Part shown: one piece after another, positions 5,537 through 41,795 of the stretch
How positions within the stretch are numbered: position 1 is the stretch's first letter
Layout: every line of letters begins with the position of its first letter
Origin: Gaiellales bacterium
GTDB taxonomy: Bacteria; Actinomycetota; Thermoleophilia; Gaiellales; JAICJC01
Direction of reading: 5' to 3'
DNA length: 54,766 nt
NCBI GenBank assembly: GCA_035639615.1
Contig: DASQXS010000370.1
Location: 1 to 54,766 of the forward strand
Notes under the pieces: model-generated
Told to the model about the DNA's origin: nothing
Databases searched by the model: none
The model's input: only the letters and a program-made list of their open reading frames with translations
Program-made: the position numbers and the translations under genes

Positions 5537-5725
5537 TCAGGGCCGGCCCTCCTCGTCCTCGAGCGCCTCGGCCCGCGCCTCGAGCGCGGCCACGGCCTCG
5601 TGGACGAGCGCGGTGATGCGCTCGAGCAGCTCTGTCGCCTGCTCCGGCGCGAGGTCGCCGCTCTCGAGCTCACCGCGGAGCCGCTCCAGGTCGGCTGCGA
5701 CCTGTTCGAGACGGGTCTCGTCTAT
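5537..5725 (-). CDS. xseB: exodeoxyribonuclease VII small subunit (start codon unresolved)
   Basis: This frame is below the 60-aa cutoff, so it is absent from the track. It reads '(I)DETRLEQVAADLERLRGELESGDLAPEQATELLERITALVHEAVAALEARAEALEDEEGRP*'. That is collinear with E. coli XseB '[26 protein letters not shown]...'. Third codon positions are almost all G/C. There is no in-frame ATG/GTG/TTG. The only sensible start is ATA 5725, which overlaps the nusB TAG. Confidence 0.5.
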   Translation of the reverse strand: MDETRLEQVAADLERLRGELESGDLAPEQATELLERITALVHEAVAALEARAEALEDEEGRP

Positions 5726-6123
5726 CTCCCGACCCCCTGCTCGCGGGCGATCCGTCCGAGGACGCCGTTCACGAACGCCGCCGCCTCCGGCGATGCGTAC
5801 CGCTTGGCGAGCGACACGGCCTCGTCGATAGCAACGGCCGGCGGCACCTCGCCCCGCTCGAGCTCCCAGACCGCGAGGCGGAGGATGTTCCGCTCGAGCA
5901 CGGCCATCCGCTCGGCGCTCCAGCCGCTCGCCGCGTCGTCGATGCTGCGGTCGATCCGGTCGCGGTCGGCCCAGGCCCCCTCAGCCTGCGCGCGCACGAA
6001 CTCCGTTACGCGCTGGCCGTGGTCGCGCTCGTACGCCTCGTAGAGCGACCGGAAGTCGCCGCCGGTCAGGTCCTTCTGGTAGAGCAGGAAGGCGGCGCCG
6101 CGGCGCTCGGAGCGGCGGCTCAT
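5722..6123 (-). CDS. nusB: transcription antitermination factor NusB
   Basis: ATG 6123 overlaps the asp23 stop (ATGA), giving 133 aa. Motifs: 'RSERRGAAFLLYQ', 'ERNILRLAVWEL', 'AIDEAVSLAKRY ... FVNGVLGRI'. Confidence 0.9.
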   Translation of the reverse strand: MSRRSERRGAAFLLYQKDLTGGDFRSLYEAYERDHGQRVTEFVRAQAEGAWADRDRIDRSIDDAASGWSAERMAVLERNILRLAVWELERGEVPPAVAIDEAVSLAKRYASPEAAAFVNGVLGRIAREQGVGR

Positions 6124-6452
6124 CGCTCGCCCTCCCGCGTGACCTCGGTCACGGTCACGTCGACCGCACGCACGTCGAGGCCCGTCATCCGCTGCACCTG
6201 CTCGGCAACGGCCTCGCGGACGTCCGCCGCCAGCTCCGGGAGCACATGGCCGTACCCGGCCGAAACGTCGACGTCGAACGTGATCTCCGAGCCCGAGATG
6301 TCCCATTCCACCGGCCCGCGTCGTCCCGGAAGCACCCGGGCGACGCGGCCCGGCGTGTCGAGCCGGGCGCCGGTCACGCTCGCGACGGCGCCGCGCACGA
6401 TCGTCTGCAGCGCCTCGTCGGCGACGGTGGCGGTCCCAAGCCGAAGCGGCAT
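6120..6452 (-). CDS. Asp23/Gls24 family envelope stress protein
   Basis: 110 aa. 'VADEALQTIVRGAVASVTG ... EVAEQVQRMTGLDVRAVDVTV' matches the Asp23 family pattern. It sits between accC and nusB, as yqhY does in Bacillus. Confidence 0.8.
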   Translation of the reverse strand: MPLRLGTATVADEALQTIVRGAVASVTGARLDTPGRVARVLPGRRGPVEWDISGSEITFDVDVSAGYGHVLPELAADVREAVAEQVQRMTGLDVRAVDVTVTEVTREGER

Positions 6453-7822
6453 CAGGCGGCCACCTCCGTCGACAAGGACGGCAGCCGGTCGCGGGCCGCC
6501 TCGAGATAGGCCGTCGTGTAGCGGCCGGCCCGAAAGGCCGGCTCCTCGACGATCTCGGCGAAGAGCCCGGCGGTCGTCGCGAGGCCCTCGATCTCGAGCT
6601 CGGCGAGCGCGCGCCGGGAGCGGTCGATCACCCGCTCGCGGTCAGGGCCCCAGACGATCAGCTTGGCGAGGAGCGAGTCGTAGAAGGGCGGCACCCGATA
6701 GCCCTCGTAGGCGTGCGTGTCGACCCGGACGCCGGGGCCGAGCGGCGGGCGGAAGCGGGTCACCGTGCCGGCCGCGGGCCGGAAGGCTCGGCGCGGATCC
6801 TCGCAGTTCACCCGGAACTCGATCGCGTGGCCGCGAAGCTCCGCCAGGCCGGTTCGCGCGAGCGGCTCTCCGGCGGCGATGCTGAGCTGCGCTGCTGCCA
6901 GGTCCCAGCCGGTCACCGCCTCGGAGACGGGGTGCTCGACCTGGAGGCGGGTGTTCATCTCGATGAACGAGAACCGCTCGTCGGCGTCGACGAGGAACTC
7001 GACGGTGCCCGCATTCTGGTAGCCGCATCCGGCGCATGCGAGGCGGGCGGCCTCGGCCATGTGCTCCCGGGTCTTCTCGCCGAGCGCCGGCGACGGGCCC
7101 TCCTCGATCAGCTTCTGGTGACGCCGCTGCACGGAGCAGTCGCGCTCGCCGAGCACCAGCACTCTCCCGGCCGCATCGGCGAGCACCTGCATCTCGACGT
7201 GTCGCGCGTCCGCGATGACCTTCTCCATGTACATCCCGCCGTCACCGAACGCCGACAGCGCCTCCGCCGACGCGATCCCGTAGGCGTCCTCGATGTCCAC
7301 CGCGTCGTCCACGAGCCGCATCCCGCGCCCACCGCCCCCGGCAACGGCCTTCAGCAGCACCGGGTAGCCGATCTCGGCCGCGAGCGAGCGGGCGTGATCC
7401 GCGCCGGACAGGCGATCCAGCGACCCGGGGACGAGCGGCACGCCGGCCGCCCGCATCGCCTCGCGGGCGCGGCTCTTGTCGCCCATCACCTCCATCGCCT
7501 CGGCGGGCGGGCCCACGAAGATCAGGTCGTTGTCTTCGCACGCGCGGGCGAACGCCGCGTTTTCGGCGAGGAAGCCCCAGCCGGGGTGGACGGCGTCGCA
7601 CCCGGTCGTCTCAGCCGCAGCGATCAGGTTGGGGACGTGCAGATAGCTCGCCGACGGCAGGTGCGGGCCGATGCAGACCGACCGATCCGCCTGGCGCACC
7701 CAGAGCCCGTCGCGGTCGGCGGTGGAGTAGACGGCGACCGCCTCGATGCCCGAGTCGTGGCACGCGCGCACCATGCGCACCGCACACTCCCCCCGATTGG
7801 CGACCAGCACCCTATTCAGCAC
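6452..7822 (-). CDS. accC: biotin carboxylase
   Basis: GTG 7822 gives 456 aa. Motifs: 'RVLVANRGECAVRMVRAC', ATP-grasp loop 'GGGGRGMR', 'EMNTRLQVEHPVSE'. Confidence 0.95.
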   Translation of the reverse strand: MLNRVLVANRGECAVRMVRACHDSGIEAVAVYSTADRDGLWVRQADRSVCIGPHLPSASYLHVPNLIAAAETTGCDAVHPGWGFLAENAAFARACEDNDLIFVGPPAEAMEVMGDKSRAREAMRAAGVPLVPGSLDRLSGADHARSLAAEIGYPVLLKAVAGGGGRGMRLVDDAVDIEDAYGIASAEALSAFGDGGMYMEKVIADARHVEMQVLADAAGRVLVLGERDCSVQRRHQKLIEEGPSPALGEKTREHMAEAARLACAGCGYQNAGTVEFLVDADERFSFIEMNTRLQVEHPVSEAVTGWDLAAAQLSIAAGEPLARTGLAELRGHAIEFRVNCEDPRRAFRPAAGTVTRFRPPLGPGVRVDTHAYEGYRVPPFYDSLLAKLIVWGPDRERVIDRSRRALAELEIEGLATTAGLFAEIVEEPAFRAGRYTTAYLEAARDRLPSLSTEVAA

Positions 7823-7897
7823 CGGTCCACCCAAGCCTGGGGTCTGACCCCGCAGGGCAGCGCGCAGCGCCGCCCACCGTTGCCCGGCCGCCCGGGA

Positions 7898-7936
7898 GCC
7901 CGAATTGCGCCGGCGGCACGCCGGGGCAATTCGGGC
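7898..7936 (-). promoter_or_regulatory. strong intercistronic hairpin between the BCCP-fusion gene and accC
   Basis: Plus strand reads gcccgaattgcgccggcg-gca-cgccggggcaattcgggc. This is an 18-bp stem with one mismatch and a 3-nt loop. It lies in the only sizeable gap (132 nt) of the operon and has no U-tract. Confidence 0.5.
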
Positions 7937-7954
7937 GCGTGATCGCAAACACCA

Positions 7955-9724
7955 TCACGCCGGCTCGAGCTCGAAGAGCGGCTGGCCGTACTCGACCGGC
8001 TCGGCGTTGGCGACGAGGATCTTGCGGATGACCCCGGCGTGGTCCGACTTGAACTCGTTGAAGAGCTTCATCGCCTCGAGGATGCACAGAGTCTGGCCCA
8101 CCTCGACGAGGTCGCCCTCGTCCACGAACGCCGGCTGGTTGGGGGAGGGCGCCCGGTAGAAGGTCCCGACCATCGGCGACTCGAGCCGGATCGCCGACGA
8201 TACCTCGGGCTCCTCGTCCGCCGCCTCCTCGACCGCCGCAGTCGCAGCCACCGCAGCCGGCGCCGGGGCCGGCCGGTCGTCGTGCCTCCGCACCGTGATC
8301 CGGACCGGGCCGTCCTCGAGGGTCAGCTCGCCGACGTCCGACCCTTCGACCATCCGGATCAGCTCGCGGATCCGCTCGGACTGCGACGGCTCGAGCTGGT
8401 CGGATCGCCGATCCGTCTCTTCCCCGCGCCCGCGAAGCGCGGCGAGCAGCCGAGCGGCAGGCTCGCCGAACAGGGCGAGAAGCAGCAGATCCTCTTCGCT
8501 CGGGGCGCCGCCCGCGCGCGCCTTCAGCTCGGCCATGTCCGGCTCGGGATCCATGGCCGCGCCGGCCTCCGCGAACGCTGCGGCGCCCGGAGCGACCGCC
8601 ATCGGCGGTGAGCCGTAGTCCCCGCCGAGAAGCCTTCGCATCTCGTCCGACGCGCTCGCCCACCGCTGCGCGGAGAGGACGTGGCGGACGGCCTGCCCTG
8701 CCAGGATGCCGCCGATCGGCTGCGCCAGCGGCGGCATGCCGCAGTCGTCGCGCACCCGCACCAGCTCCTCGAGCACCTCGTCCAGCCGATCGCCCGCGTC
8801 GGCGTGCCGCAGCCGCGCGTCGATCTCGGCCACGAGCCCGACGGGGATGCGGTTGAGCGCGGTGCGAAGCGTGATCCGCGGGGGGATGGGAAGCGTCGGC
8901 ATCTGCGACGTGACGTGGTCGTCGATGAACCGTGAGGCCTGCCAGACGCGAGCGGTTTCCACGCCGTGGTCGATGTCGAGCCCCGTGAGCGCGTCGCAGA
9001 GCACCTCGGCGGCAACGCGGTTGAGCGAGGCCGCAACGGGATAGACGGCGACGGCGATCGGCTCCGCGCCGGCCCGTGCCCCCTCGACCGCCATCGCGAG
9101 CGCGTTTCCGCCGGTGCCCTGGCAATAGAGGCCTGCCGGCACGCCGGACGCCTCGGCCAGGCGCGCGATCACCTTGCCGCACGTGCCCGGGTCGAGCGCG
9201 CCGGCGGGATCGTGCAGGAGCACGCGGTCGGCGCCGAGCTCGGCGAGCCGGCGCGCCTTCTCGACCACCCGCTCGAGGTTCGCCATGTGCCCCGAGAAGG
9301 CCAGCCCGGCGTAGAGGCGGCCGCCGGCCTCGCGTACCGCTGCGGCTGCCGGCGCGAGGTTCTCGACGTCGTTCAGCGGGTCGTGGAGGCGGAAGATGTC
9401 GATCCCGCTCTCGGCCGCCGAGAGGATGAACCGCCTCGCCAGGTCGTCGGAGACGGGGCGCGATCCCACCAGGAACCGGCCTCGAAGCGCCATCTGGAGC
9501 GGCGTCGTCGAGCACCGCGCCTTGAGCGCCCGGATCCGCTCCCACGGGCTCTCCACCGCCCGCCGCACCGCCGCGTCGAAGCAGCCGCCGCCGGATACCT
9601 CGAGCGACTCGAAGCCGGCCCCATCGAGGATCTCGGCCACCTCGAGCAACCGCGACGTCGACATCGTGCCTGCGAGCGGCTGCTGTGAGAGCAGCCTGAC
9701 TGTGGTGTCGACGATCCGGGTCAC
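7955..9724 (-). CDS. fusion of an OadA/PycB-type (5S) carboxyltransferase-like domain, apparently degenerate, with a full-length AccB-type biotin carboxyl carrier protein
   Basis: 589 aa. The N-terminus 'MTRIVDTTVRLLSQQPL ... SGGGCFD ... PWERIRALK ... TPLQMALRG ... GIDIFRLHD' is collinear with OadA/PycB. The C-terminus 'IRELIRMVEGSDVGELTLEDGPVRITVRR ... SPMVGTFYRAPSPNQPAFVDEGDLVEVGQTLCILEAMKLFNE' is collinear with E. coli AccB and includes the biotinyl-Lys motif AMK. GTG 9724 overlaps the efp stop (GTGA). Confidence 0.85.
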   Translation of the reverse strand: MTRIVDTTVRLLSQQPLAGTMSTSRLLEVAEILDGAGFESLEVSGGGCFDAAVRRAVESPWERIRALKARCSTTPLQMALRGRFLVGSRPVSDDLARRFILSAAESGIDIFRLHDPLNDVENLAPAAAAVREAGGRLYAGLAFSGHMANLERVVEKARRLAELGADRVLLHDPAGALDPGTCGKVIARLAEASGVPAGLYCQGTGGNALAMAVEGARAGAEPIAVAVYPVAASLNRVAAEVLCDALTGLDIDHGVETARVWQASRFIDDHVTSQMPTLPIPPRITLRTALNRIPVGLVAEIDARLRHADAGDRLDEVLEELVRVRDDCGMPPLAQPIGGILAGQAVRHVLSAQRWASASDEMRRLLGGDYGSPPMAVAPGAAAFAEAGAAMDPEPDMAELKARAGGAPSEEDLLLLALFGEPAARLLAALRGRGEETDRRSDQLEPSQSERIRELIRMVEGSDVGELTLEDGPVRITVRRHDDRPAPAPAAVAATAAVEEAADEEPEVSSAIRLESPMVGTFYRAPSPNQPAFVDEGDLVEVGQTLCILEAMKLFNEFKSDHAGVIRKILVANAEPVEYGQPLFELEPA

Positions 9725-10278
9725 GCCCGCGAGATGTAGCGCGCCTCGCGTGTGTCCACGCGGACACGCTCGCCCACGTTCACGAACAGCGGCACCGCGA
9801 CGACCGCGCCGGTCTCGAGCGTCGCCGGTTTGGTGACGTTCGACACGGTGTCACCCTTCACGCCCGGCTCGGTGTCCACAACCTCGAGCTCGACGGCCGC
9901 CGGCAGCTGCAGCCCGGACGGCGCCCCGTCCACGAGGAGGAGCTGGACGGTGTCGTTCTCCTTCATGAACCGAAGCTCCTCGGCGACCGACGCGACCGGC
10001 AGCGCGAGCTGATCGAACGTCTCTGCGTCCATCAGATGAACGTCGGAGCCGTCGTTATAGAGGTAGCTCACGTTTTTGACCTCGGTGCGGACGCGGGGCA
10101 TCTTCTCCCCAGCCCGGAAGGTCTTGTCGACGACCGCGCCGCTCTCGAGCGCCTTCAGCCTCGTCCGGACGAACGCGCCGCCCTTCCCCGGCTTCACATG
10201 CTGGAACTCGACGATGCGGTAGACCGTCCCGTCGACGTCGATGTGCATGCCGTTCTTGAACTGATTCGTCGAGATCAT
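9721..10278 (-). CDS. efp: elongation factor P
   Basis: 185 aa: 'MISTNQFKNGMHIDVDGTVYRIVEFQHVKPGKGGAFVRTRLK...'. Confidence 0.97.
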   Translation of the reverse strand: MISTNQFKNGMHIDVDGTVYRIVEFQHVKPGKGGAFVRTRLKALESGAVVDKTFRAGEKMPRVRTEVKNVSYLYNDGSDVHLMDAETFDQLALPVASVAEELRFMKENDTVQLLLVDGAPSGLQLPAAVELEVVDTEPGVKGDTVSNVTKPATLETGAVVAVPLFVNVGERVRVDTREARYISRA

Positions 10279-11363
10279 CGCGCCTGCCGGACGGTGGTCA
10301 GCCCCTTAGGGTAGCCGGTGAGGCGCTCGCATCCGTCCCCGGTGATGACGACCAGGTCTTCGATCCGTACGCCGCCGGCGCCGGGCAGATAGATCCCCGG
10401 CTCGACTGTGACGACCATCCCCGGTTCGAGGGTTGCAGCGGACGCCGCCGAGAGGCGCGGATCCTCATGGACGTCGAGTCCGACGCCGTGGCCGAGGGGG
10501 TGGCCGAAGTACTCGCTGAGTCCGGCCTTCTCGATGATGTCCCGCGCGATCGCGTCCGCGTCCTTGCAGGCCATCCCCGGCCCGATCGCGTCCATCGCGG
10601 CGAGCTGAGCCTCGAGGCAGATCGCGTAGGCGTCGCGCAGCCGCGGCGCGAGCGTCCCGGTCGCAAACGTGCGCGTGCAGTCCGAGCAGTAGCCGTCGAG
10701 GATGCAGCCCAGGTCGACGGTCACGAGCGTGTCCGGACCGATGGTGGCATCCCCCGCCTCGGCATGCGGCTGCGCGCCGCGCTCGTGGGAGGCGACGATC
10801 GGCGGGAAGCTCACCCCCTCGGCGCCCTGCTCATGGAAGAGCTCCTGGATGCGCCAGGCGACGTCTCGTTCGCGCCTCCCGGCGAGTCCCTCGTCGACGA
10901 GCGTCTCGAGCACCGGCTCGATCAGCGCTGCCGACCTGCGCACGGCGCCGATCTCGGCCTCGTCCTTCACCCGGCGCAGGCCCTCGATCGCACCGACCGT
11001 GGGGACGGGATCCGAGGGCGCGGCGGCGCGCAGCCGCTCGTGCTGGGCGACGCTCAGGTGCGCCGCCTCGAAGCCGATCCGCGTCGCGCCGGGCGCCAGC
11101 TCCGTGAGGTGCTCACACGCCGACCGAAGGACGTCCCGCTCGACCTGGCGCACCTCCATGTAGGCGGCGAGGGGCTCGGCCCGCTCGGTGTAGCGGAAGT
11201 CGGTCAGGAAGGTTGCCCCATCCGGTCGCAGGAGGACCGCCGCGTTGGTCCCGCCGAACCCCGTCAGGTAGCGGATGTTCACGGCTGAGGTGACGAGCAG
11301 GGCGTCCACCTCGAGCCCGTCGAGCAGGCCGCGCCCAGCATCCAGCCTGGCCGCGTAGCTCAC
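10275..11363 (-). CDS. M24 family Xaa-Pro aminopeptidase
   Basis: GTG 11363 overlaps the aroQ stop (GTGA), giving 362 aa. Metal-ligand contexts: 'DLGCILDGYCSDCTRTF', 'HPLGHGVGLDVHE', 'EPGIYLPGAGGVRIED'. The 1180-aa track ORF 10275..13817 is an artefact upstream of this start. Confidence 0.9.
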   Translation of the reverse strand: MSYAARLDAGRGLLDGLEVDALLVTSAVNIRYLTGFGGTNAAVLLRPDGATFLTDFRYTERAEPLAAYMEVRQVERDVLRSACEHLTELAPGATRIGFEAAHLSVAQHERLRAAAPSDPVPTVGAIEGLRRVKDEAEIGAVRRSAALIEPVLETLVDEGLAGRRERDVAWRIQELFHEQGAEGVSFPPIVASHERGAQPHAEAGDATIGPDTLVTVDLGCILDGYCSDCTRTFATGTLAPRLRDAYAICLEAQLAAMDAIGPGMACKDADAIARDIIEKAGLSEYFGHPLGHGVGLDVHEDPRLSAASAATLEPGMVVTVEPGIYLPGAGGVRIEDLVVITGDGCERLTGYPKGLTTVRQAR

Positions 11364-11791
11364 GCGCCGCGGCCCACGAGATGCTCGAGCGCCTCGCGAT
11401 AGCCCTCCGCCCCGCGCCCGGTGATGCGATGGGAGACGACGTCCCCGATCACCGACTGCCGCCGCCACTCCTCGCGGCGATCGACGTCGGAGATATGCAC
11501 CTCGATGATCGGGCCCGTGAAGATCTCGAGCGCATCGCGGATCGCGTAGCTGTAGTGGGTCCACGCGCCCGGGTTGACGACGAGCCCGTCGACCCCGTCG
11601 CAGGCTTCGTGGATCATCTCGACGAAGTCGCCCTCGCTGTTCGTCTGCCAGCAGCGAACCGATAGGTTGAGCTCCTTCGCCCAGGTGTAGATCATCGTCT
11701 CGAGCTGCGTCAGCGTTACGGTGCCGTACTGGGCCGGGTCGCGCCGGCCCAACATGCTGAGGTTGACACCGTTCAGGACCGCGACCTGCAT
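11360..11791 (-). CDS. aroQ: type II 3-dehydroquinate dehydratase
   Basis: 143 aa. Motifs: 'VLNGVNLSMLGRRDPAQYG', 'NPGAWTHYSYAIRDA', 'EVHISDVDRREEWR'. Confidence 0.95.
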   Translation of the reverse strand: MQVAVLNGVNLSMLGRRDPAQYGTVTLTQLETMIYTWAKELNLSVRCWQTNSEGDFVEMIHEACDGVDGLVVNPGAWTHYSYAIRDALEIFTGPIIEVHISDVDRREEWRRQSVIGDVVSHRITGRGAEGYREALEHLVGRGA

Positions 11792-11803
11792 GGACCGGGC
11801 AGG

Positions 11804-13282
11804 TTACTTGACCGTGGTCGCCCACAACCGGCCGCCGCCGGCGACGAGGCCCGCGAGCGCCGGCGCGATCCGCCTGGGCGGCGATGTCTCGAGGGTGCGG
11901 GGATCGATCCGGCTGAGCACGCCCGAGCGCGAGGCCACCCACACCCAGCGGCCGGCGGCAGCCACGGCGGAGGGAGCGGCGGCAACGGCGACGCGCCGCT
12001 GACGGTCGGGCGCGTCCGGATCGACACGCACGACGGCGCCCGCCGCAGCGTCCACGACCCACACCCGGCCGAACCCCACGGCCAGAGCGGCCGGTTCGAC
12101 ACCCACCGCCGCCTCCGCGGCGACGCGTCCCGAGGCCGGGTCGACGCGGACGAGGACGCCGTCCGCCGCGTCGGCGACCCAGAGCGACCCGAAGCCGTAC
12201 ACGGCGACGGGCTGCGCCCCCACATGGATGGGTGCGGAGACCGCAAGCGTCCGCGCATCGATCCGCCGGACGGTGCCTCGCTCCGGGTTCGTCACCCAGG
12301 CCGCCCCGGCTCCGGCGGTCACGGCAGCGGCGCCGGCGCCGACCGGCACCGGCGGGCCGTCCGGCGCGCCGAGCTCCGGGTCGATGCGGCGGACGGTCCC
12401 GTCGCCGGCGTCGACCACCCAGACGGCGCCGCCGGCGACCGCAACGCCCGCCGGCCCGGCGCCGCCGCTCGGCGACTCCACCGCGACGCCGGAGGCGGGG
12501 TCGATCCCGAGCACCCGTGACGCCGCCGGCTCGGCCACCCACAGCCGCCCCAGCCCGAACGCCGCGCCGCCGGGGGCGGCGGCAAGGCGGGTCTGGGCGA
12601 GGATCCGGCCCGACGATCCGGCGAGCTCTCCGACGGCGTCGGGATCGAGCGAGCGGATCCGATGCGACGCGAGCTGGGTCGCCGCGATCGCAACGGCCGC
12701 AGCGAGCGCGGCGATCACGCCGACGGCCGCCACCGCGAGACGCCCGGCTGTCCACGGCGACGGCGTCTCCGGGCGCGCGGGGGCGGCCGGAAACGTCGCG
12801 TCGTAGCGCTCCACGGCATCCCGAATGCCCTTCAGGACGACCGGCCCGCGGTCGACGAACGTGATCGCCTCCACTCCTTGGGTGCGCTCCGCCGCCCGCG
12901 CCGTGGCGATCACCCGCCCCGGCTCGGCGAGCCGGCACAGGCGGGACGCAACGCCGGCGTCGTCGCCGGCGTCGATCGCCATGCCGACGCGAAGCGGGAG
13001 CGACGGATCCGACCCGCCCAGCGCGGCGAACGCGCGCTGGGCATCCGCGGCGCACATGAACGCCGCCCGCGTCGTCGGGAAGGTGCAGACTGCCTCGTCC
13101 GCTCCCAGCTCGAGGACGACTCCGGCGCGGTCCTCGGCCGCCCAGTGCATCGTCTCGGCGAACCGCGCGGCGAGGCGCGCGGCGGCCTCGCCTCCGCGGG
13201 CGCGCGCGAACGAGCTGTATCCCCGCACCTCCGCGACGAGCACGGCACGGGCGGGCGGCAGGGTGCCCGCGTCCTCGCGCAC
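11804..13282 (-). CDS. membrane-anchored protein: N-terminal class III nucleotidyl cyclase homology domain, one TM helix, extracytoplasmic 7-repeat beta-propeller
   Basis: 492 aa. Cyclase-like region: 'AVLVAEVRGYSSF ... LELGADEAVCTF ... RVGMAIDAG ... VASRLCRLAEPGRV ... LKGI'. TM helix: 'LAVAAVGVIAALAAAVAIAA'. About seven repeats of roughly 40 aa follow, each with (L/V)WV..D....G.V.R(I/V)DP. Confidence 0.7.
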   Translation of the reverse strand: MREDAGTLPPARAVLVAEVRGYSSFARARGGEAAARLAARFAETMHWAAEDRAGVVLELGADEAVCTFPTTRAAFMCAADAQRAFAALGGSDPSLPLRVGMAIDAGDDAGVASRLCRLAEPGRVIATARAAERTQGVEAITFVDRGPVVLKGIRDAVERYDATFPAAPARPETPSPWTAGRLAVAAVGVIAALAAAVAIAATQLASHRIRSLDPDAVGELAGSSGRILAQTRLAAAPGGAAFGLGRLWVAEPAASRVLGIDPASGVAVESPSGGAGPAGVAVAGGAVWVVDAGDGTVRRIDPELGAPDGPPVPVGAGAAAVTAGAGAAWVTNPERGTVRRIDARTLAVSAPIHVGAQPVAVYGFGSLWVADAADGVLVRVDPASGRVAAEAAVGVEPAALAVGFGRVWVVDAAAGAVVRVDPDAPDRQRRVAVAAAPSAVAAAGRWVWVASRSGVLSRIDPRTLETSPPRRIAPALAGLVAGGGRLWATTVK

Positions 13283-13388
13283 GATGGTCCGAGTCTATCC
13301 GCGTCACAACTGTTACACGGCCGCCATTGCACCGTCGCCTGAGCGGGCGACAATCGGAGTACGGAGTGAGCCTGACGAAGGAGGAGAC

Positions 13389-14189
13389 ATGCGATGGGCA
13401 GTCCTGACGGTGTGCGCGCTCGCCGCGCTGGCGGTCCCGGGCGGCGCCGAGGCCGCCAGGGCGCATCCCGCCGCCACGCACACGCCCACCATCGGAGTGT
13501 GGTTTGGCCGAGACGGACACCTCTGGCAGACGAAGCGGACGATCGCCTCGACGCCGACCGTGGCGACGGCCGCCGTCCTCGCGCTCCTCGACGGCCCGAG
13601 CGCTGACGAGGCCGCCGCCGGTGTTCACTCGGCCGTCCCCGCCGGCACCCGCCTGCGCGGGATCCTGGTCCGCTCGGGGCTTGCGACGGTCAACCTGAGC
13701 AGCGCCTTCGCCGCGTCCGCGCCGCGGCGGCGCGTGCACATGCGGCTCGCCGAGCTCACCTACACGCTGACGCAGTTCCGGACGGTCGACGCTGTTCGGC
13801 TCGAGATCGACGGCCACGCCGTGAGCTCCATCGCCGGCGTGGCGGTGCCGTCACGCCTTGAGCGGGCCCGGTACGCGCGCCTCCTGCCGCCCATCCTCGT
13901 CTGGAACCCGGCGATCGGGGCCCGCATCCCGACCACGGTGACGGTGTCGGGCACCTCCGACGTGTTCGAGGCGAATATGGTCGTCAAGGTGAAGAACGCC
14001 CGCGGCCGCCTGCTCGCCAGGGTGTGGACGACGGCGTCGTGCGGCACCGGCTGCCGCGGCTCGTACCGCGTCCGGATCTCCTACCACGTGCGCCGGGCCC
14101 AGCGCGGCACCGTCGTGATCACGGACACCGGCGCCCGGACGTCCAGGCCGGAGCACATCGTGACGGTCCCTGTCTGGCTCAGCGCCTGA
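13389..14189 (+). CDS. secreted GerMN + Gmad2 (Ig-like) domain protein
   Basis: ATG 13389 is preceded by the SD-like sequence aaggagg (13378-13384). Signal peptide: 'MRWAVLTVCALAALAVPGGAEA'. GerMN-like: 'AVLALLDGPSADEAAAGVHSAVPAGTRL ... TVNLS'. Gmad2-like: 'VTVSGTSDVFEANMVVKVKNARG'. Confidence 0.7.
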   Translation: MRWAVLTVCALAALAVPGGAEAARAHPAATHTPTIGVWFGRDGHLWQTKRTIASTPTVATAAVLALLDGPSADEAAAGVHSAVPAGTRLRGILVRSGLATVNLSSAFAASAPRRRVHMRLAELTYTLTQFRTVDAVRLEIDGHAVSSIAGVAVPSRLERARYARLLPPILVWNPAIGARIPTTVTVSGTSDVFEANMVVKVKNARGRLLARVWTTASCGTGCRGSYRVRISYHVRRAQRGTVVITDTGARTSRPEHIVTVPVWLSA

Positions 14190-15681
14190 GCGCCACGGCC
14201 CGGGCGACGGCCTGCTCGACCAGCTCGTCGCCCGGGTCGACGTCCCAGACCGGCCGGCCGACTCCCTCGAGGAGCGCGAAGCGAACCCGCCCGTGGCGCG
14301 CCTTCTTGTCGTGGGCCATCGCCTCGACGATCGCCGCCGGGCTGACGTTCCGGGCGACGACCGGCAGGCCGTGGCGGCGGAGGAGGTCGCGCACCTCGTC
14401 CTCCACGCCCGGATCGAGGCCTGCGCACCTGGCGGAGAGCCAGAGCGCCGGGAGCAGACCGACGGCCACGGCCTCGCCGTGGGCGAACGCCTTGAATCCC
14501 GTGGCAGCCTCGATCGCGTGACCGATGGAGTGACCGAGGTTCAGCACCGCCCGCATCCCCTGCTCGGTCGGGTCGGCCGCCACCACGCGGGCCTTGTAGG
14601 CGGCGCAGCGGCGGATGAGCTCGAGCCGCTGCTCGGGCGTCCCTCTTCCGGGATCCCATCTCCGCACGAGCTCCCAGAGGCGGCCGCCGGCGAGAAGCGC
14701 CGTCTTCACGACCTCGGCGAATCCAGAGGCCCACTCCCGCACCGGCAGGGTCTCGAGCGTCGCGGGGTCGCAGACGACCCACTCGGGCTGGTGGAACGCG
14801 CCCACCGCGTTCTTCGCCTGCGCCAGGTCGAGGCCGGTCTTGCCGCCGATCGCCGCGTCGACCATCCCGACGAGCGACGTCGGGACGGCGATCCACGGGA
14901 CGCCGCGCAGGTACGTCGCCGCGACGAAACCTGCCGTGTCGGTGGCCGCGCCCCCGCCCAGGCCGACGACGACGTCGCCGCGCTCGACGCCGAACTCGGC
15001 GAGCCGCGTCCACGCCTGGCGGGCGACGGCGACCGTCTTCGCCGCCTCGCCCACCGGCAGCCGCACGGTGACGAGCGGCTCAACCGGCGGCCCGACCACG
15101 CGAAGCACGGACCGGTCGGCCACGAGCGCGGCGCGGCGCGCGCCGACGAGACGGGGGAGCTCGGCCAGCGCGGCCGGCCGCGACAGGGGCGCGATCAGCG
15201 CCTCGTCGCCGGCCGGCTCGTCCGCGTCGATCAGCGCGTCGCACACGCCGTGGTAGAGCGGCCGCCGCTCCTCGTAGAGCTCGGCGAAGCCGCGCGCCTC
15301 TCTCGCAAGGGGCCGGTCGCCGGCCTGGGCCTCGATCCGCCTCCATGCGGTCTGGGGCGACACGTCGAGCAGGATCGTGAAGCTGCCGTTTCGCAGCCGC
15401 TGCCGCGTCGTCGCCGAGAGGATCGCTCCGCCGCCGAGCGCGACGACGACACTCGTCTCGGCCAGGAGCCGGGCGATCACATGCTCCTCGAGCGCGCGGA
15501 AGGCCGCCTCTCCCTCGTCGGCGAAGATCGCGCCGACCGCCTTCCCCGCCTCGCGCTCGACCTCGCGGTCGGCGTCGACGAACCTCCACCCGAGCCGTCG
15601 TGCGAGCCGATCCCCGGCCGTCGTCTTACCCGCGCCCATGAAGCCGATGAGCGCGACGTTCCGGTACGGGCCGGGAATCAT
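14179..15681 (-). CDS. aroKB: bifunctional shikimate kinase / 3-dehydroquinate synthase (AroK-AroB fusion)
   Basis: ATG 15681 overlaps the aroC stop (ATGA), giving 500 aa. N-terminal Walker A: 'NVALIGFMGAGKTT'. DHQS motifs: 'GLGGGAATDTAGFVAATYLRGVPWIAVPTSLVGMVDAAIGGKTG', 'NLGHSIGHAIE'. Confidence 0.92.
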   Translation of the reverse strand: MIPGPYRNVALIGFMGAGKTTAGDRLARRLGWRFVDADREVEREAGKAVGAIFADEGEAAFRALEEHVIARLLAETSVVVALGGGAILSATTRQRLRNGSFTILLDVSPQTAWRRIEAQAGDRPLAREARGFAELYEERRPLYHGVCDALIDADEPAGDEALIAPLSRPAALAELPRLVGARRAALVADRSVLRVVGPPVEPLVTVRLPVGEAAKTVAVARQAWTRLAEFGVERGDVVVGLGGGAATDTAGFVAATYLRGVPWIAVPTSLVGMVDAAIGGKTGLDLAQAKNAVGAFHQPEWVVCDPATLETLPVREWASGFAEVVKTALLAGGRLWELVRRWDPGRGTPEQRLELIRRCAAYKARVVAADPTEQGMRAVLNLGHSIGHAIEAATGFKAFAHGEAVAVGLLPALWLSARCAGLDPGVEDEVRDLLRRHGLPVVARNVSPAAIVEAMAHDKKARHGRVRFALLEGVGRPVWDVDPGDELVEQAVARAVALRR

Positions 15682-16862
15682 GCCCGCGCGATGCGCTCGG
15701 TGTACGCGGCGTGCGCCGCCACGAAGTCGGCGATCGCGTCCCCGCCGAACTTCTCGCGCGCGGCCCGAGCAAGCTCCCACGCGACGGCGGCTTCCGCCAC
15801 GACCGCGGCCGCCGGGAGCACCGTGACGTCGGAGCGCTCGACGTGCGCCTCTCGCGGCTCGTGCGACCCCAGCTCCGCGGAGCGCAGCGGCCGCATGAGC
15901 GTGGGCAGCGGCTTCCAGATCGTGCGCACGACCACGTCGGCGCCGTTGGTCATCCCGCCCTCGAGCCCGCCGGCACGATCGGTCTCGCGGTACCAGCCGC
16001 GGTCATCGGAGTGGAAGATCTCGTCGTGCACGCTCGATCCCCGCCGTGCCGAGGAGGCGATCGCGTCGCCGATCTCGACCGCCTTCGCGGACTGGATCGA
16101 GAGCATCGCGGCCGCGAGGCGGCCGTCCAGCCGCGCGCCTGCCGAGACGTGCGAGCCGAGGCCCGGCGGCACCCCGAATGCCCGCACCTCGGTCAGGCCG
16201 CCGAGCGTATCGCGGTCGCGCTTCGCGGCCTCGATCTCGGCGATCATCGCCGCCTCGGCGTCCGGGTCGATGCACCGGACGGGCGACCGCTCGGCCCGGT
16301 CGAGGTCGGCCGCGGACAGCCACGCCGGCGGCGTCGCCCGCACGTGCCCGACCTGGAGGACGTGCGAGCGCACCTCGATCCCGATCGTGGCGATGAGCGC
16401 ACGGGCGACGGCCCCGGCCGCCACGCGGGCGGCGGTCTCGCGCGCGCTCGCCCGCTCGAGCACGTTGCGGACGTCGTCGTAGCCGTACTTGAGGGCGCCG
16501 GCGAGGTCGGCGTGGCCGGGCCGCGGCAGCCTGACGGCCTTCCCGCGCCAGCCGTAGCCGTCGAGCTCGGCCGGCTCCACCGGCCAGGCGCTCATCGGCG
16601 CGGCCCAGTTGGCGTGGTCGCGGTTCTGGATGAAGAAGGCGAGCGGGCTCCCCAGCGTGCGGCCGTGGCGGAGGCCGCCGCGGGGCTCGACATCGTCCTG
16701 CTCGAGCTGCTGGCGGGGGCTTCTGCCGTACCCGGCCTGGCGGCGGGCGAGATCCCGGCGGATGAGCTCATGGTCGAGCTCGAGCCCCGCCGGGAGGCCG
16801 CTCACGACGACGGTCAAGCCGGGGCCATGCGACTCGCCGGCGGTGACGTAGGAGAGCTCCAT
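15678..16862 (-). CDS. aroC: chorismate synthase
   Basis: 394 aa. 'MELSYVTAGESHGPGLTVVVSGLPAG ... RRQAGYGRSPRQ' and the C-terminal FMN-binding region. Confidence 0.95.
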   Translation of the reverse strand: MELSYVTAGESHGPGLTVVVSGLPAGLELDHELIRRDLARRQAGYGRSPRQQLEQDDVEPRGGLRHGRTLGSPLAFFIQNRDHANWAAPMSAWPVEPAELDGYGWRGKAVRLPRPGHADLAGALKYGYDDVRNVLERASARETAARVAAGAVARALIATIGIEVRSHVLQVGHVRATPPAWLSAADLDRAERSPVRCIDPDAEAAMIAEIEAAKRDRDTLGGLTEVRAFGVPPGLGSHVSAGARLDGRLAAAMLSIQSAKAVEIGDAIASSARRGSSVHDEIFHSDDRGWYRETDRAGGLEGGMTNGADVVVRTIWKPLPTLMRPLRSAELGSHEPREAHVERSDVTVLPAAAVVAEAAVAWELARAAREKFGGDAIADFVAAHAAYTERIARA

Positions 16863-24599: not shown

Positions 24600-26015
24600 C
24601 TATGCGATCGTCCCGGCGCCGACGACCGCATCGCCGTCGTAGAGCACCGCCGCCTGCCCGGGGGCGACGCCCTCCACCGGCTGGTCGAGGTCGAGCGTGA
24701 AGCCGCCGTTCCCCGGGTGCACGGTCGCCCACACCGGCGCCTGCCGGTAGCGGAGCTTGGCCTGGACGCGCGCGGCCGGGATGTAGACGGCGCCGGGCGC
24801 GACCCGCACCGACGAGCGCGCGAGCGCCTCCCTGCGGCCGACGACGACCCGGCCGCTCTCCGGCTCGGTGCGGACGACGTAGAGGGCCTCGCCGCCCCCC
24901 AGGCCGAGGCCGCGGCGCTGGCCCGGCGTGAACCGGTGCAGGCCGCCGTGCCGCCCGAGGACGCGGCCCCCGCCGTCGACGATCTCCCCGACCGGCCCGG
25001 CGCCGCCGCGTCGCTCGACGAAGGCGCGGTGATCGCCGCCGCCGACGAAGCACACCTCCTGGCTCTCGGCGCGGCCCGCGGCCGCGAGCGCCGCCCGCCG
25101 CGCCTGCGCCCGGGTCTCGGCCTTCGTCTGACCGCCCAGAGGAAACCAGCACCGCTCGAGGATGTCGGCGGGGACCGACGCCAGCATGTACGACTGGTCC
25201 TTCGCCGAGTCGACCCCGCGCGCCACCAGGGTGCGCCCCGCGCGGCGCTCGAGCCGCGCATAGTGGCCGGTGGCGATCCCGGCCGCGCCGAGCCGGTCGG
25301 CGGCCTCCGCGAGGGCGGCGAACCGGAAGGTGCCGTTGCAGCGCATGCAGGGGTTGGGCGTGCGGCCGGCGGCGTGGGCGGCGACGAAGTCGTCCACGAC
25401 CGCGGCCCGGAAGCCGTCCCGCAGGTCGAGGCCGAGGTGCGGCACCCCGAGCGCGTGGCACGCGGCCCGCGCGTCCCGGACGGACCGCGGCGAGCAGCAG
25501 GCGCGCTCGCCGTCGGGCGCGTCGGGGTCGATCCAGAGCCGGAGCGTGACCCCGACGGGCTCGAACCCCGCCTCCGCCGCCTTCAGCAGGGCCACGGCCG
25601 AGTCGACGCCGCCGCTCATGGCCACGACCACCCGGCCGGCGGCAAGCGGCAGGGTCAGATGGTCGACGGCGCGGGCGAGAGCGGCATGGAGGGCGTCGGC
25701 GGCGAGCGCCACGCAGGGCCGGTTCGCGTCAGGCGGCGCGAGTGCCCGCTCGAGGTCGCCCGCACCGATCCGAGCCGCCTGGAGCAGGTCGCGGCCCTCG
25801 GCGAGGGCGCAGGCGAGGGCGGCCGCAGCCGTCGCATGGGGGCAGCCGAACGTCCGGTGGCGGGCCGCCTCGATGCGACCGCCTGCGAGCAGGAGCTCGA
25901 TCCGCACCGCGTCTCCACAGGCGGCGTTCCCGGCCTCGCCGGCCACGGCTCCCGGCCCCGCCGGGCCGGCCCGCTCGACGCTCAGCGCGTGCTCGATGGT
26001 CGCGGCCGAATACAC
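24600..26015 (-). CDS. mnmA: IscU/NifU-N scaffold domain fused to tRNA 2-thiouridylase MnmA
   Basis: GTG 26015 gives 471 aa. Residues 1 to about 125, 'VYSAATIEH ... NAACGDAVRIEL ... TFGCPHATAAA ... RPCVALAADAL', are collinear with E. coli IscU and include its three Cys. Then MnmA follows: 'VVVAMSGGVDSAV' (PP-loop), 'RTPNPCMRCNG', 'ATGHYAR', 'KDQSYML', 'SQEVCFVGG'. TTG 26024 is an alternative start. Confidence 0.85.
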   Translation of the reverse strand: MYSAATIEHALSVERAGPAGPGAVAGEAGNAACGDAVRIELLLAGGRIEAARHRTFGCPHATAAAALACALAEGRDLLQAARIGAGDLERALAPPDANRPCVALAADALHAALARAVDHLTLPLAAGRVVVAMSGGVDSAVALLKAAEAGFEPVGVTLRLWIDPDAPDGERACCSPRSVRDARAACHALGVPHLGLDLRDGFRAAVVDDFVAAHAAGRTPNPCMRCNGTFRFAALAEAADRLGAAGIATGHYARLERRAGRTLVARGVDSAKDQSYMLASVPADILERCWFPLGGQTKAETRAQARRAALAAAGRAESQEVCFVGGGDHRAFVERRGGAGPVGEIVDGGGRVLGRHGGLHRFTPGQRRGLGLGGGEALYVVRTEPESGRVVVGRREALARSSVRVAPGAVYIPAARVQAKLRYRQAPVWATVHPGNGGFTLDLDQPVEGVAPGQAAVLYDGDAVVGAGTIA

Positions 26016-26050
26016 GGGCCCCAAGCGTACGCCAGCGGAGGCCGGATCGC

Positions 26051-40289: not shown

Positions 40290-41198
40290 CTACCGTCCCG
40301 GCGCGTCGCTCACCGCCCCGAACTCGCCGGCCACAGCCACCTCGAGCAGCCGGTCCGGGCGCATCTCGAGAAGCCGCAGGGCGTCGCCGGCGGCCGCGGC
40401 CGCCACCCCGGCCGGCATCAACCCGACCAGCTCGCCTCCGGCGACGCCGACCCCGCGCCCGGCCGCCAGCCGCGCGACCTCGGCGACGACGCGGTGAAGC
40501 GGGGTCGCGGCGACGTCGATCAGGTTCATCGAGACCTGCGCCCGGCCGCTTCGGCGCAGCCCGAGGCCGAGCGCCTGGACGCCCGCCAGGCCCCCGTCAC
40601 GCTCCCGAATCGCGGTCGCGATCGCCCGCGCCACCTCGACGTCGGAGGTCTCGAGATCCACGTTGAAGGCCACGAGCGGCGGGCGGACGCCGACGAGCAC
40701 GGCCCCGGCGCTCGGGTGAAGGCGCATCGGCCCCCAGAGGGGGGCCGCCTCGGCGGCGTCGACGCGGCCCTGAAGCCCCGCCGTCCCGCCTGCGCGGAAG
40801 AACGCCGGGCGAAGCCCACCGCCCAGATCGGCGTACCCGAAGACCGGGATCCCGGACGCGCCGATGCGCTCGCCCAGCTCGCGGGCGGCGCGCTCGGGCA
40901 CAGGATCGCCCGGCCGGAAGCGCACGAAGGGGACGACGTCGGCCGCGCCGACGCGCGGATGCACGCCTTCGTGGCGGCGAAGGTCGATCCGATCGGCCGC
41001 CACGGCAACCGCCGCGGCGAGGCCTGAGACGAGCCCGTCGGGATCCCCCACGCAGGTGAAGACCGAGCGGTTGTGGTCGGAGTCGGCATGGACGTCGAGC
41101 ACGCGCGCGTGCCCGTCGATCGCGGCGCGGATCGCGGCCAGGACGTCCGGGTCGCGTCCCTCCGAGAAGTTCGGCACTGACTCGAGGAGGCCGCGCAT
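40290..41198 (-). CDS. glutamate formimidoyltransferase (transferase domain only, no cyclodeaminase domain)
   Basis: 302 aa. 'LESVPNFSEGRD', 'DHNRSVFT' and 'HPRVGAADVVPF' are typical of the FTCD N-terminal and central subdomains. Confidence 0.85.
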   Translation of the reverse strand: MRGLLESVPNFSEGRDPDVLAAIRAAIDGHARVLDVHADSDHNRSVFTCVGDPDGLVSGLAAAVAVAADRIDLRRHEGVHPRVGAADVVPFVRFRPGDPVPERAARELGERIGASGIPVFGYADLGGGLRPAFFRAGGTAGLQGRVDAAEAAPLWGPMRLHPSAGAVLVGVRPPLVAFNVDLETSDVEVARAIATAIRERDGGLAGVQALGLGLRRSGRAQVSMNLIDVAATPLHRVVAEVARLAAGRGVGVAGGELVGLMPAGVAAAAAGDALRLLEMRPDRLLEVAVAGEFGAVSDAPGR

Positions 41199-41229: not shown

Positions 41230-41795
41230 TCGAGCGGGCCTCCAGTGGGAGGCCCGCCTGAGGGAGATAACGCGTCCTGGGGGGAGAACGTCGTCATGGC
41301 CTGGCGTCTGCGCGAACGTGCCCGGGAGGAAGCCGGATCGGCCAGGCGCTTACAGTCTCGACAAAGACCGGGCCGCGTGCATGCCCCTTTCGGGGGATCC
41401 GGCCTCCGCCCAGGCACGGGGCATACCTCAAAATGGTGATCGAACTCCCACCGAACGAGCGACGACGGCGGGTGTGGCTCCGACGATCATGTGAGTACGG
41501 ATCGAAAAGGCAAACTCGCCGCGAGGCGAGCACGCAAAGCTAGAGGTCTCGCAAGAGACAGCTCGGCTGCCGAAACCGGGCCCCCCTCACGATGCGACGT
41601 CCGGATCCGCGGAAGAACGCGGGTTCGTACCTTGCGAGGGAGGCTCCCAGCGACGACTCTCGTCGCGCCGCGCACTCGGGATAGGCACCCGGATGCGCAC
41701 CTCGATCCGACTCGACACGGTGCGGACGGTGGGCGCTGCGGGGGGCAGTGCCACAAGGTGGCAGTGAGGCCCACCGTCCGCCCCGTCACCTGGTC
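41230..41795. ncRNA. unassigned hairpin-rich non-coding region (candidate structured RNA or long leader); strand and class unknown
   Basis: A 600-nt gap with no ORF of genome-like codon bias. It contains A/T-rich stretches (ctcaaaatggtgatcgaact, ggatcgaaaaggcaaact). Hairpins: 41236-41255 (gggcctcc-agtg-ggaggccc), 41384-41395 (cccc-tttc-gggg), 41515-41530 (ctcgcc-GCGA-ggcgag), 41546-41559 (gtctc-GCAA-gagac), 41607-41622, 41650-41666, and a 13-bp stem pairing 41722-41734 with 41769-41781. Confidence 0.4.

Follow-up and report, generated by a model that had tools for sequence, protein, structure and literature searches.

The open reading frame (ORF) at positions 7955..9724 on the minus strand of a 54,766-nucleotide contig from a Gaiellales bacterium encodes a 589-aa protein in which a complete AccB, the biotin carboxyl carrier protein (BCCP) of acetyl-CoA carboxylase (ACC), is fused behind a full-length carboxyltransferase (CT) domain with every metal ligand replaced. 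This contig, the whole stretch of DNA analysed here (G+C content ca. 73%), is called the window below. The feature is real, conserved and lineage-wide, and it consists of known parts: AccB and a pseudoenzyme derived from the carboxyltransferase of pyruvate carboxylase (PC) and OadA. As judged from the sequences, the fusion is probably an AccB that carries a non-catalytic, full-length relic of a pyruvate-type CT, kept as a scaffold or sensor module and probably not for its chemistry. We found no description of such a fusion, or of a pseudo-carboxyltransferase, in the full-text literature searched; BCCP-PCT fusion and fission events are said to have happened many times, although this is noted in general terms only (PMC3199775).

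Architecture and annotation of the fusion

The ORF runs from a GTG start codon (9722-9724) to a TGA stop codon (7955-7957). Its product is identical to database protein P0001, named 'acetyl-CoA carboxylase biotin carboxyl carrier protein [Gaiellales bacterium]' by NCBI, while most of its relatives are named 'oxaloacetate decarboxylase (Na+ extruding) subunit alpha' by JGI. An earlier sequence-only reading of the window had placed a 589-aa protein in the accB slot of an efp-accB-accC-asp23-nusB arrangement and had predicted matches to three Pfam families. The same-strand neighbours are indeed efp, accC, asp23 and nusB, and all three families were recovered above their gathering scores: HMGL-like (PF00682) at residues 3-267, PYC_OADA (PF02436) at 291-431, and Biotin_lipoyl (PF00364) at 514-586. 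From the N-terminus onwards, the protein comprises an HMGL-like (DRE-TIM) eight-stranded beta/alpha barrel with a remodelled former active site (aa 1-270; 8915..9724, minus strand), a helical PYC_OADA-type region (aa 271-443; 8396..8914, minus), an AccB N-terminal module SERIRELIRMVEGSDVGELTLEDGPVRITVRR that would be the AccC-docking element (aa 445-480; 8285..8392, minus; E. coli AccB 5-35 and TIGR00531 from model position 5), a flexible Pro/Ala/Glu-rich linker matching that of E. coli AccB (aa 481-511; 8192..8284, minus), and a biotinyl domain (aa 512-589; 7958..8191, minus) with the ACC-type thumb FYRAPSPNQPAF and an EAMKL motif, whose biotinyl Lys553 is encoded by the AAG codon at 8066-8068 (minus). 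With its 440-aa N-terminal extension the protein is well outside the size range of stand-alone AccB (~150-180 aa).

Loss of the catalytic residues

The metal ligands of the transcarboxylase 5S subunit, Asp23, carbamylated Lys184 (KCX184), His215 and His217, served as the reference for the CT domain (the chain numbering of PDB entry 1RQB equals the numbering of its paper plus 11). HMMER alignments of the fusion to the sequences of three crystal structures (5KS8, 2NX9 and 1RQB) turn RDAHQS into R10-L11-L12-S13-Q14-Q15, KDMAG into H171-D-P-A-G, and the H-x-H motif into Y200-C-Q202. Thus, the Asp position is held by Leu11 (CTG codon, 9692..9694), the carbamylated-Lys position by His171 (CAC, 9212..9214), and the two His positions lie in Tyr200-Cys201-Gln202 (TAT-TGC-CAG, 9119..9127), with all these codons read on the minus strand and checked individually. 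Two MAFFT family alignments (150 representatives; 40 genomic loci) give the same ligand columns. A shifted alignment as the source of these changes is ruled out by the HMMER and MAFFT alignments together with the fold match described below, and the substitutions first read by hand (RLLSQQ, HDPAG, LYCQG in place of HLHTH) are thereby borne out. Since a leucine cannot ligate a metal, and all four ligands out of four are replaced, the domain reads as catalytically dead.

The loss extends beyond the metal site. The loop with the catalytic threonine, VTP(S/T)SQ/K, reads AQPIGG in the fusion (A334-Q335-P336-I337-G338-G339; 8708-8725, minus), so that the Thr and then the Ser and Lys/Gln are replaced as well. 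In R. etli PC (RePC) this Thr882 is catalytically essential and the T882A variant is inactive (PMC5895798); Q335 was equated with it from the conserved motif and index arithmetic, not from a residue-level alignment with RePC. An A-to-T mutation also inactivates the CT of MfPC (A49T; PMC5059739). We considered Cys48 of the fusion as a mimic of this change and rejected it: index arithmetic aligns A49 with G47, where no inactivating change is seen. The curated profiles agree with the loss of function. The NCBIfam PycB domain model NF006761 aligns from end to end and scores 358.7 bits against a cutoff of 402, and the oadA model TIGR01108 (308.8 against 756.5) and PRK14040 (261 against 892) remain far below theirs. 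The N-terminal domain thus has the fold of a CT without its metal site, its essential Thr loop or a passing curated score. Apparently it is catalytically disabled, all residues known to be required for CT chemistry being replaced. The earlier suggestion of a domain that looks dead, is retained at full length and is fused to the carrier of AccC fits all sequence-level evidence.

Fold of the CT-like domain

An AlphaFold2 model of the fusion, built on a 59-sequence alignment, has a mean predicted local distance difference test score (pLDDT) of 84.9 and a predicted TM-score (pTM) of 0.71. It contains eight beta/alpha units, a helical second domain, the AccB N-module (helix 446-461 and beta-hairpin 466-479), a disordered linker, and the biotinyl sandwich. 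The barrel strands (4-6, 40-44, 76-81, 108-113, 136-142, 167-172, 197-202 and 223-226) mostly have a pLDDT above 90; in linker residues 482-509 it falls below 50, and sequence entropy there is the highest in the protein. By Foldseek, the model superposes on OadA of V. cholerae (2NX9; TM 0.85-0.86) and on the 5S subunit (1RQB; TM 0.82), with a root-mean-square deviation of ~3 A over ~450 residues at a sequence identity of 26-31%; this is the structural check that the sequence-only reading had called for. The collinearity of the N-terminal ~440 aa with the 5S/OadA/PycB carboxyltransferase, likewise claimed there, is upheld by Pfam, by the end-to-end NF006761 alignment, and by the TM-score of 0.85 to OadA. 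The fusion differs from OadA and 5S in having no metal site, and neither membrane-pump nor 12S partners lie nearby; its carrier is of the AccB type, whereas the BCCP of OadA is thumb-less and the 5S subunit has no BCCP at all.

The AccB part and its biotin carboxylase

Residues 445-589 are a complete AccB. The equivalog model TIGR00531 is matched by residues 451-587 over model positions 5-155 of 156 (128.6 bits; cutoff 115.2), and residues 451-589 align with positions 5-156 of E. coli AccB at 38% identity (E = 9e-34), covering the N-module, the P/A linker, the thumb and the MK motif. The thumb FYRAPSPNQPAF is aligned to FYRTPSPDAKAF of the E. coli protein. The biotinyl domain matches PF00364 (E = 2e-19) as well as PDB entries 1BDO and 4HR7, and K553 is invariant in the 205 closest-clade sequences (clade A, see below). 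These results agree with the earlier view that the C-terminal ~150 aa are collinear with full E. coli AccB, including the N-module, the thumb and EAMKL. The fusion therefore has the equivalog score, biotinyl-Lys motif, thumb and N-module of an AccB, and its gene immediately precedes accC within the efp...nusB block, but it is ~4x larger than E. coli-type AccB through the 440-aa pseudo-CT, and it starts at the efp stop codon. Classical OadA/PycB tails, by comparison, have neither N-module nor thumb.

The neighbouring accC (6452..7822, minus) encodes a biotin carboxylase (BC) of 456 aa from a GTG start at 7822 (MLNRVLVANRGE...), with Biotin_carb_N, CPSase_L_D2 and Biotin_carb_C domains and a score of 618 on the AccC-type model NF006367 (cutoff 597). 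The known system nearest to this pair in sequence and fold is the two-subunit PC with its PycB subunit (M. flagellatus 5KS8; NF006761), the best match of the fusion both by sequence (E = 9.6e-64) and by Foldseek (E = 1e-38). In either protein a CT barrel is followed by a helical domain and then a BCCP, and the BC partner is a separate protein; the fusion differs in its missing metal ligands and catalytic Thr and in scoring under the curated cutoff. In the two-subunit PC (PycA/PycB, alpha2beta4) a BT-like domain of the beta subunit, built of four-stranded sheets with an HGE motif, encloses an Ala-rich C-terminal helix of the BC subunit (PMC5059739). Neither element was found in the window's pair: the 5KS8 alignment is confined to chain residues 6-437 and 561-616 and skips the BT-like segment at 438-560, in place of which the fusion has its AccB N-module, and the AccC-type partner ends ...AARDRLPSLSTEVAA at 456 aa, without the PycA-type helix. 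The AccB-type N-module and thumb, the AccC-type partner and the missing BT-like segment link the fusion to its biotin carboxylase in the manner of AccB, not of PycB.

Degenerate clades and intact fusions

Among 1.84 billion representatives searched, 361 relatives were found with E <= 1e-30, and these were grouped by their residues in the four ligand columns (D / KCX / H / H) of the MAFFT alignments. Clade A (Gaiellales / Gaiellaceae), to which the window's fusion belongs, has L, H (or L/N/D/Q), Y (or H/F) and Q in these columns, with the order efp-fusion-accC-(asp23)-nusB. Clade D (Miltoncostaeaceae and other Thermoleophilia) has D, S, Q and Q with efp-fusion-accC-nusB. Clade B, with Actinomycetota-like synteny, has S, K, D/N and D in an aroC-aroK-aroB-aroQ-pepP-efp-fusion-accC-asp23-nusB...nadK-recN arrangement. 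Clade C, with D, K, S and K, adjoins bioY and lies 4-8 kb from fabZ-fabD-fabG-fabF and an E. coli-type accD (locus L004). Single members from various taxa show yet other combinations, such as D, M, H and H in P0139, which adjoins a biotin-protein ligase. The position of clade C beside bioY and near the fab genes and accD, and that of P0139 beside the ligase, link these proteins to housekeeping functions in biotin and fatty-acid metabolism. Overall, the site has degenerated in different ways in at least four lineages; three show Actinomycetota-type synteny, and all have an AccB-type tail beside accC. A neighbour-joining tree is affected by long branches and does not separate one from several losses of activity in clades A, B and D. 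In every Thermoleophilia locus examined (20+) the gene order is efp-fusion-accC-(asp23)-nusB, the fusion always adjoining accC, and in none of these loci was a stand-alone AccB form seen.

Fusions with intact motifs (D, K, H, H in the ligand columns; RDAHQS, KDMAG, HxH, VTPTSQ) occupy the same accB slot before accC in Clostridia and other Bacillota. Their hosts are Thermincola ferriacetica (L027), a Desulfitobacterium sp. (L028), a Peptococcaceae metagenome-assembled genome (MAG; L023), a spore-former (L005) and other Clostridia, and one more lies on a groundwater contig. In the spore-former the order is efp-spoIIIAA..AH-fusion-accC-asp23-nusB-folD-xseAB-ispA, and the fusion occupies what we take to be the classic accB position of B. 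subtilis. These proteins share the architecture, the AccB-type tail and the slot of the Gaiellales fusion at 31-36% identity; unlike it they keep all catalytic motifs, and they are presumably active pyruvate carboxyltransferases. They pass both curated cutoffs (837-866 bits on PycB model NF006761, and that of AccB), whereas the four degenerate clades fail the former and pass the latter. Their tails also keep a Met at AccB position 1, as expected of a fused accB start. Among 50%-identity representatives, degeneracy goes with the AccB-type tail: of the proteins with such a tail 20 are degenerate and 6 intact, and with a PC/OadA-type tail the counts are 6 and 15 (Fisher p = 0.0013). These numbers are indicative only, since the ranking of the representatives followed their similarity to a degenerate query.

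Three further kinds of locus were seen among the relatives. In a MAG labelled Verrucomicrobiota (L031), a clade A fusion with 53% identity stands in the gene order typical of Thermoleophilia, efp-fusion-accC-nusB; the contig is probably mis-binned. Casimicrobiaceae and other proteobacterial MAGs (L040, L041, L044) have an unfused accB-accC-CT trio, with a CT that has no BCCP and carries the variant motifs RDAHQC, IKDP(S/T)G and H-S-H-C as well as VSPFAQ instead of VTPTSQ. The trio looks like a distinct, apparently uncharacterised family of AccB/AccC-dependent pyruvate-type carboxylases. Finally, in two Bathyarchaeia MAGs (L032, L034) a gene for an intact CT plus BCCP adjoins a PccB-like carboxyltransferase with accC ~6 kb off, so that pyruvate-type and CoA-type transferases are mixed around one carrier.

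Selection on the dead domain

Purifying selection acts on the dead CT domain with nearly the strength seen for AccC. Synonymous sites are saturated at the protein identities concerned (72-85%; G+C at third codon positions, GC3, 0.92), and we therefore compared relative rates with AccC instead of computing dN/dS. In pairwise comparisons of 17 clade A loci, the CT-like part has an average identity of 0.62, the biotinyl domain one of 0.68 and AccC one of 0.67. The resulting divergence ratio, (1 - identity CT)/(1 - identity AccC), is 1.14 in clade A, 0.86 in the intact Bacillota fusions, and 1.61 in clade D; relative to AccC, the clade A domain thus evolves ~1.3x faster than intact CT domains. A full-length CT-like domain is kept in >200 sequence clusters and at least three Actinomycetota clades.

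In a sample of 205 clade A sequences, made up of two subclades ~52% identical to each other, 140 of the 430 positions of the CT-like part are near-invariant. The substitutions at the former metal site are among them (L11 100%, H171 98%, Y200 99%, C201 100%, Q202 100%), which answers the question, raised with the first reading, of whether orthologues keep them. R10, Q14, R81 and R83 (100% each) and H114 (98%) are equally fixed. Position 335, formerly the catalytic Thr, drifts (Q 52%, S 37%, A 12%). Comparison with 22 intact enzymes yielded 24 positions fixed in both groups but with different residues, among them D11L, W44S, A47G, T48C, L79A, Q83R, F114H, A116P, K171H, H200Y, H202Q, D224A and S338G. 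Half of these switches (12/24) lie at the C-terminal ends of beta-strands, against a background of 56/430 (p = 6e-6), and 55 further positions are fixed and identical in both groups. From the fixed switches on the catalytic face, the invariant pocket and the shared core it follows that this face was first remodelled and afterwards became fixed, on a core that stayed conserved.

Origin and present role

The comparison of these loci points to the following origin. A complete accB was fused behind an OadA/PycB-like CT gene, and the intact version persists in the accB slot of several Clostridia and other Bacillota, where fusion and AccC should together form a two-subunit PC. In the Thermoleophilia the residues of the CT chemistry were lost (four metal ligands, the essential Thr, the following Ser and Lys/Gln) and the domain was kept. 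The sequence-only reading had proposed a docking, regulatory or substrate-recognition module, or a PC relic recruited into ACC. The relic part is supported by the intact CT::AccB proteins in the same Bacillota slot; the direction seems to have been the opposite, a full AccB gaining a CT that later died.

At present, BirA would biotinylate Lys553, the AccB N-module (aa 445-480) would dock the fusion on the AccC dimer, and AccC would carboxylate the biotin. By means of the 30-aa flexible linker, the biotinyl domain would reach over to a CoA-type carboxyltransferase whose gene lies elsewhere (AccA/AccD or an AccD-type beta subunit), and this enzyme would make malonyl-CoA. We thus infer that the fusion is the carrier of ACC, its biotinyl domain shuttling between AccC and a CoA-type CT. 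The 440-aa pseudo-CT would be a folded oligomerisation or scaffold module of the BC-BCCP subcomplex. By analogy with the CT dimers of pyruvate carboxylases, its most likely reason for survival would be as an assembly scaffold or dimerisation module. The remodelled pocket (L11, R83, H114, H171, Y200, Q202) would replace the metal centre, with L11, Y200 and R83 filling the void left by the metal, and may also bind a small ligand. A known parallel is offered by the BADC proteins of plants, BCCP-like pseudo-subunits which have no biotin and act as regulators of heteromeric ACC. Like the fusion, they are a conserved ACC component without catalytic or cofactor residues and with a non-catalytic role; in BADC, however, the dead part is the carrier itself and a separate subunit, whereas the fusion has an intact carrier and its dead part is the fused transferase domain of a different enzyme.

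Several points weigh against the proposal of an ACC carrier with a scaffold domain. Neither the 54.8-kb window nor the flanks (+/-10 kb) of the related Thermoleophilia loci yielded a gene for a CT partner, be it accA/accD or an AccD-type beta subunit. The Pfam scan of the window took in 35 of its 48 gene calls and two extra ORFs, some 15 smaller calls being outside it, and among the 35 proteins scanned there was no CT partner (Carboxyl_trans), PC or phosphoenolpyruvate carboxylase. With E. coli AccA and AccD as queries, tblastn over the window and 1.3 Mb of the relatives' loci (+/-10-kb flanks) gave matches only in the clade C locus L004 (accD) and in the two Bathyarchaeia loci. Should the genome have a separate stand-alone accB elsewhere, the fusion need not be the ACC carrier. 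The loss of activity is read from residue identity, and the sharing of BC and carrier with ACC by the intact Bacillota enzyme is likewise our inference. Lastly, a scaffold-only role does not require the invariant R10, Q14 and R81, nor the new basic residues R83, H114 and H171 that line the pocket; together these give a hint of ligand binding or residual chemistry.

The strongest alternative takes up this hint. The metal-free, invariant pocket may be a regulatory sensor that binds a metabolite (for example pyruvate, oxaloacetate or some other 2-oxoacid or dicarboxylate, or else carboxybiotin/BCCP itself) and allosterically gates the access of the carrier to AccC or to the CT enzyme. We regard this as possible, though clearly less probable than a scaffold. 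R10, Q14 and R81, fully conserved, are the residues that we take to contact pyruvate in PC structures; the new residues R83, H114, H171, Y200 and Q202 are 98-100% conserved; the fixed switches concentrate on the catalytic face; and G47, at the position of the A-to-T inactivation, bears no inactivating change. However, clades B, C and D have quite different pocket residues and keep neither Q14 nor R81, which makes a common ligand across the lineages unlikely, buried residues at the top of a barrel are often conserved for stability alone, and the ligand is not identifiable computationally.

The same strong purifying selection and invariant pocket could also mean that the protein is still an enzyme: fusion and AccC would form a two-subunit biotin carboxylase whose barrel passes CO2 to pyruvate or another acceptor without a metal or in some otherwise altered way, for instance with Arg83 or His171 in place of the metal. 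The substrate-contacting Arg/Gln/Arg set is kept, and architecture and gene pairing are like those of PycB/PycA. Yet characterised members of the CT family are known to use an Asp/KCX/His/His metal site, and here all four ligands are replaced, one of them by Leu. Moreover, the position of the essential Thr varies between Q, S and A, with Gly/Gly in place of the following Ser and Lys/Gln, the intact fusions score more than twice as high with the PycB model that the degenerate protein fails, and the degenerate clades carry mutually incompatible 'active sites'. This makes retained catalysis an improbable explanation, and more so than the sensor.

Far less plausible still is a neutral relic, a functionless N-terminal remnant on its way to deletion: the loss of the catalytic residues is what one would expect of it, but it is contradicted by the full-length retention of the domain, its slow evolution at nearly the rate of AccC, its near-invariant positions, its confidently predicted fold, and a codon-position G+C typical of expressed genes (GC3 0.92). 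The least credible option is that the database names are right and that the protein is the alpha subunit of a Na+-pumping oxaloacetate decarboxylase, as JGI calls most relatives, or an ordinary PycB, which its overall domain order resembles; the curated cutoffs, the missing ligands and Thr, the AccB-type tail with N-module and thumb, the unmatched BT-like segment, and the efp, accC, asp23 and nusB neighbours all stand against it, as does the absence of membrane OAD (oxaloacetate decarboxylase) beta/gamma subunits among the 35 window proteins scanned.

Beyond the scaffold that we favour, there is a modest chance of something wider. The frozen metal-free pocket (R10, Q14, R81, R83, H114, H171, Y200, Q202) could be a new functional site in a DRE-TIM barrel, either a metabolite sensor or even a metal-independent centre for carboxyl transfer or decarboxylation, and the intact Clostridial proteins could be an unrecognised class in which one AccB/AccC pair serves both pyruvate and acetyl-CoA carboxylation.

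Gene neighbourhood and other features of the window

The fusion and accC are separated by a 132-nt spacer (7823..7954, minus) of very stable predicted folding (-80.4 kcal/mol, z = -2.39), with a strong GC-rich hairpin at a perfect 11-bp inverted repeat, GCCCGAATTGC/GCAATTCGGGC, without a T-run. Strong GC hairpins directly after the fusion stop codon are present in relatives (L008 and others) but their sequence is not conserved, and a conserved regulatory RNA was rejected on this ground; the hairpin may tune the expression ratio of carrier to BC. On the other side, the TGA stop codon of efp (9721..10278, minus; ORF and Pfam) overlaps the GTG start of the fusion (GTGA at 9721-9724). This abutment recurs in two relatives (L008 and L009) and suggests translational coupling of the fusion to efp. 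Downstream of accC follow an asp23-family gene (6120-6452, minus) and nusB (5722-6123, minus), both identified by Pfam.

The window as a whole is a housekeeping stretch with recN, nadK, ispA, nusB...efp, pepP, aroQ, aroKB, aroC, aroE, mltG, alaS, mnmA, iscS, aspS, hisS, hut genes and ABC transporters. The order aroC-aroK-aroB-aroQ-pepP-efp...nusB (5722-16862) matches that of M. tuberculosis, where nusB presumably follows efp directly. If so, the Thermoleophilia appear to keep a Bacillota-like accB-accC-asp23 insert that is absent from the class Actinomycetes.

Several other features of the window deserve brief mention. The aroK and aroB functions are fused in one gene (shikimate kinase and 3-dehydroquinate synthase; 14179-15681, minus), and between it and aroQ lies an ORF of 492 aa (11804-13282, minus) with only weak Pfam matches of the beta-propeller type (DUF6923, Vgb_lyase) and an uncharacterised N-terminal region. 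An MnmA-type tRNA 2-thiouridylase with an N-terminal NifU-like domain (24600-26024, minus) adjoins a cysteine desulfurase. A c-di-GMP-I-GGC riboswitch aptamer (Rfam RF03167; 64.4 bits against a gathering score of 59) was found at 41500-41575 on the plus strand, in the gap between a formiminotransferase-like gene (40290-41198, minus) and ABC-2 permease genes (41799-43342, minus). No convincing plus-strand ORF follows it downstream; a PilZ-domain protein is encoded at 47427-48158 (plus).

Implications

Gaiellales and other Thermoleophilia are abundant in soil, and their sole gene in the accB slot carries conflicting names between annotation pipelines. In metabolic reconstructions, the name 'oxaloacetate decarboxylase (Na+ extruding) alpha' would wrongly credit these bacteria with a sodium pump or with an anaplerotic pyruvate carboxylase, and the plain name 'AccB' hides a domain of 440 aa. 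The intact Clostridial fusions suggest an organisation of carboxylases that was not found described in the literature searched, namely a full AccB joined to a pyruvate CT within an ACC operon, in which one BC/BCCP pair may feed two different carboxyltransferases. The differently degenerate lineages, with a fold under strong constraint, form a natural series from enzyme domain to structural or regulatory pseudoenzyme, and in this series active proteins can be paired with dead counterparts for experimental work on how ACC assembles. Should the pocket prove to be a sensor, the domain would be a built-in pseudoenzyme regulator of acetyl-CoA carboxylase.

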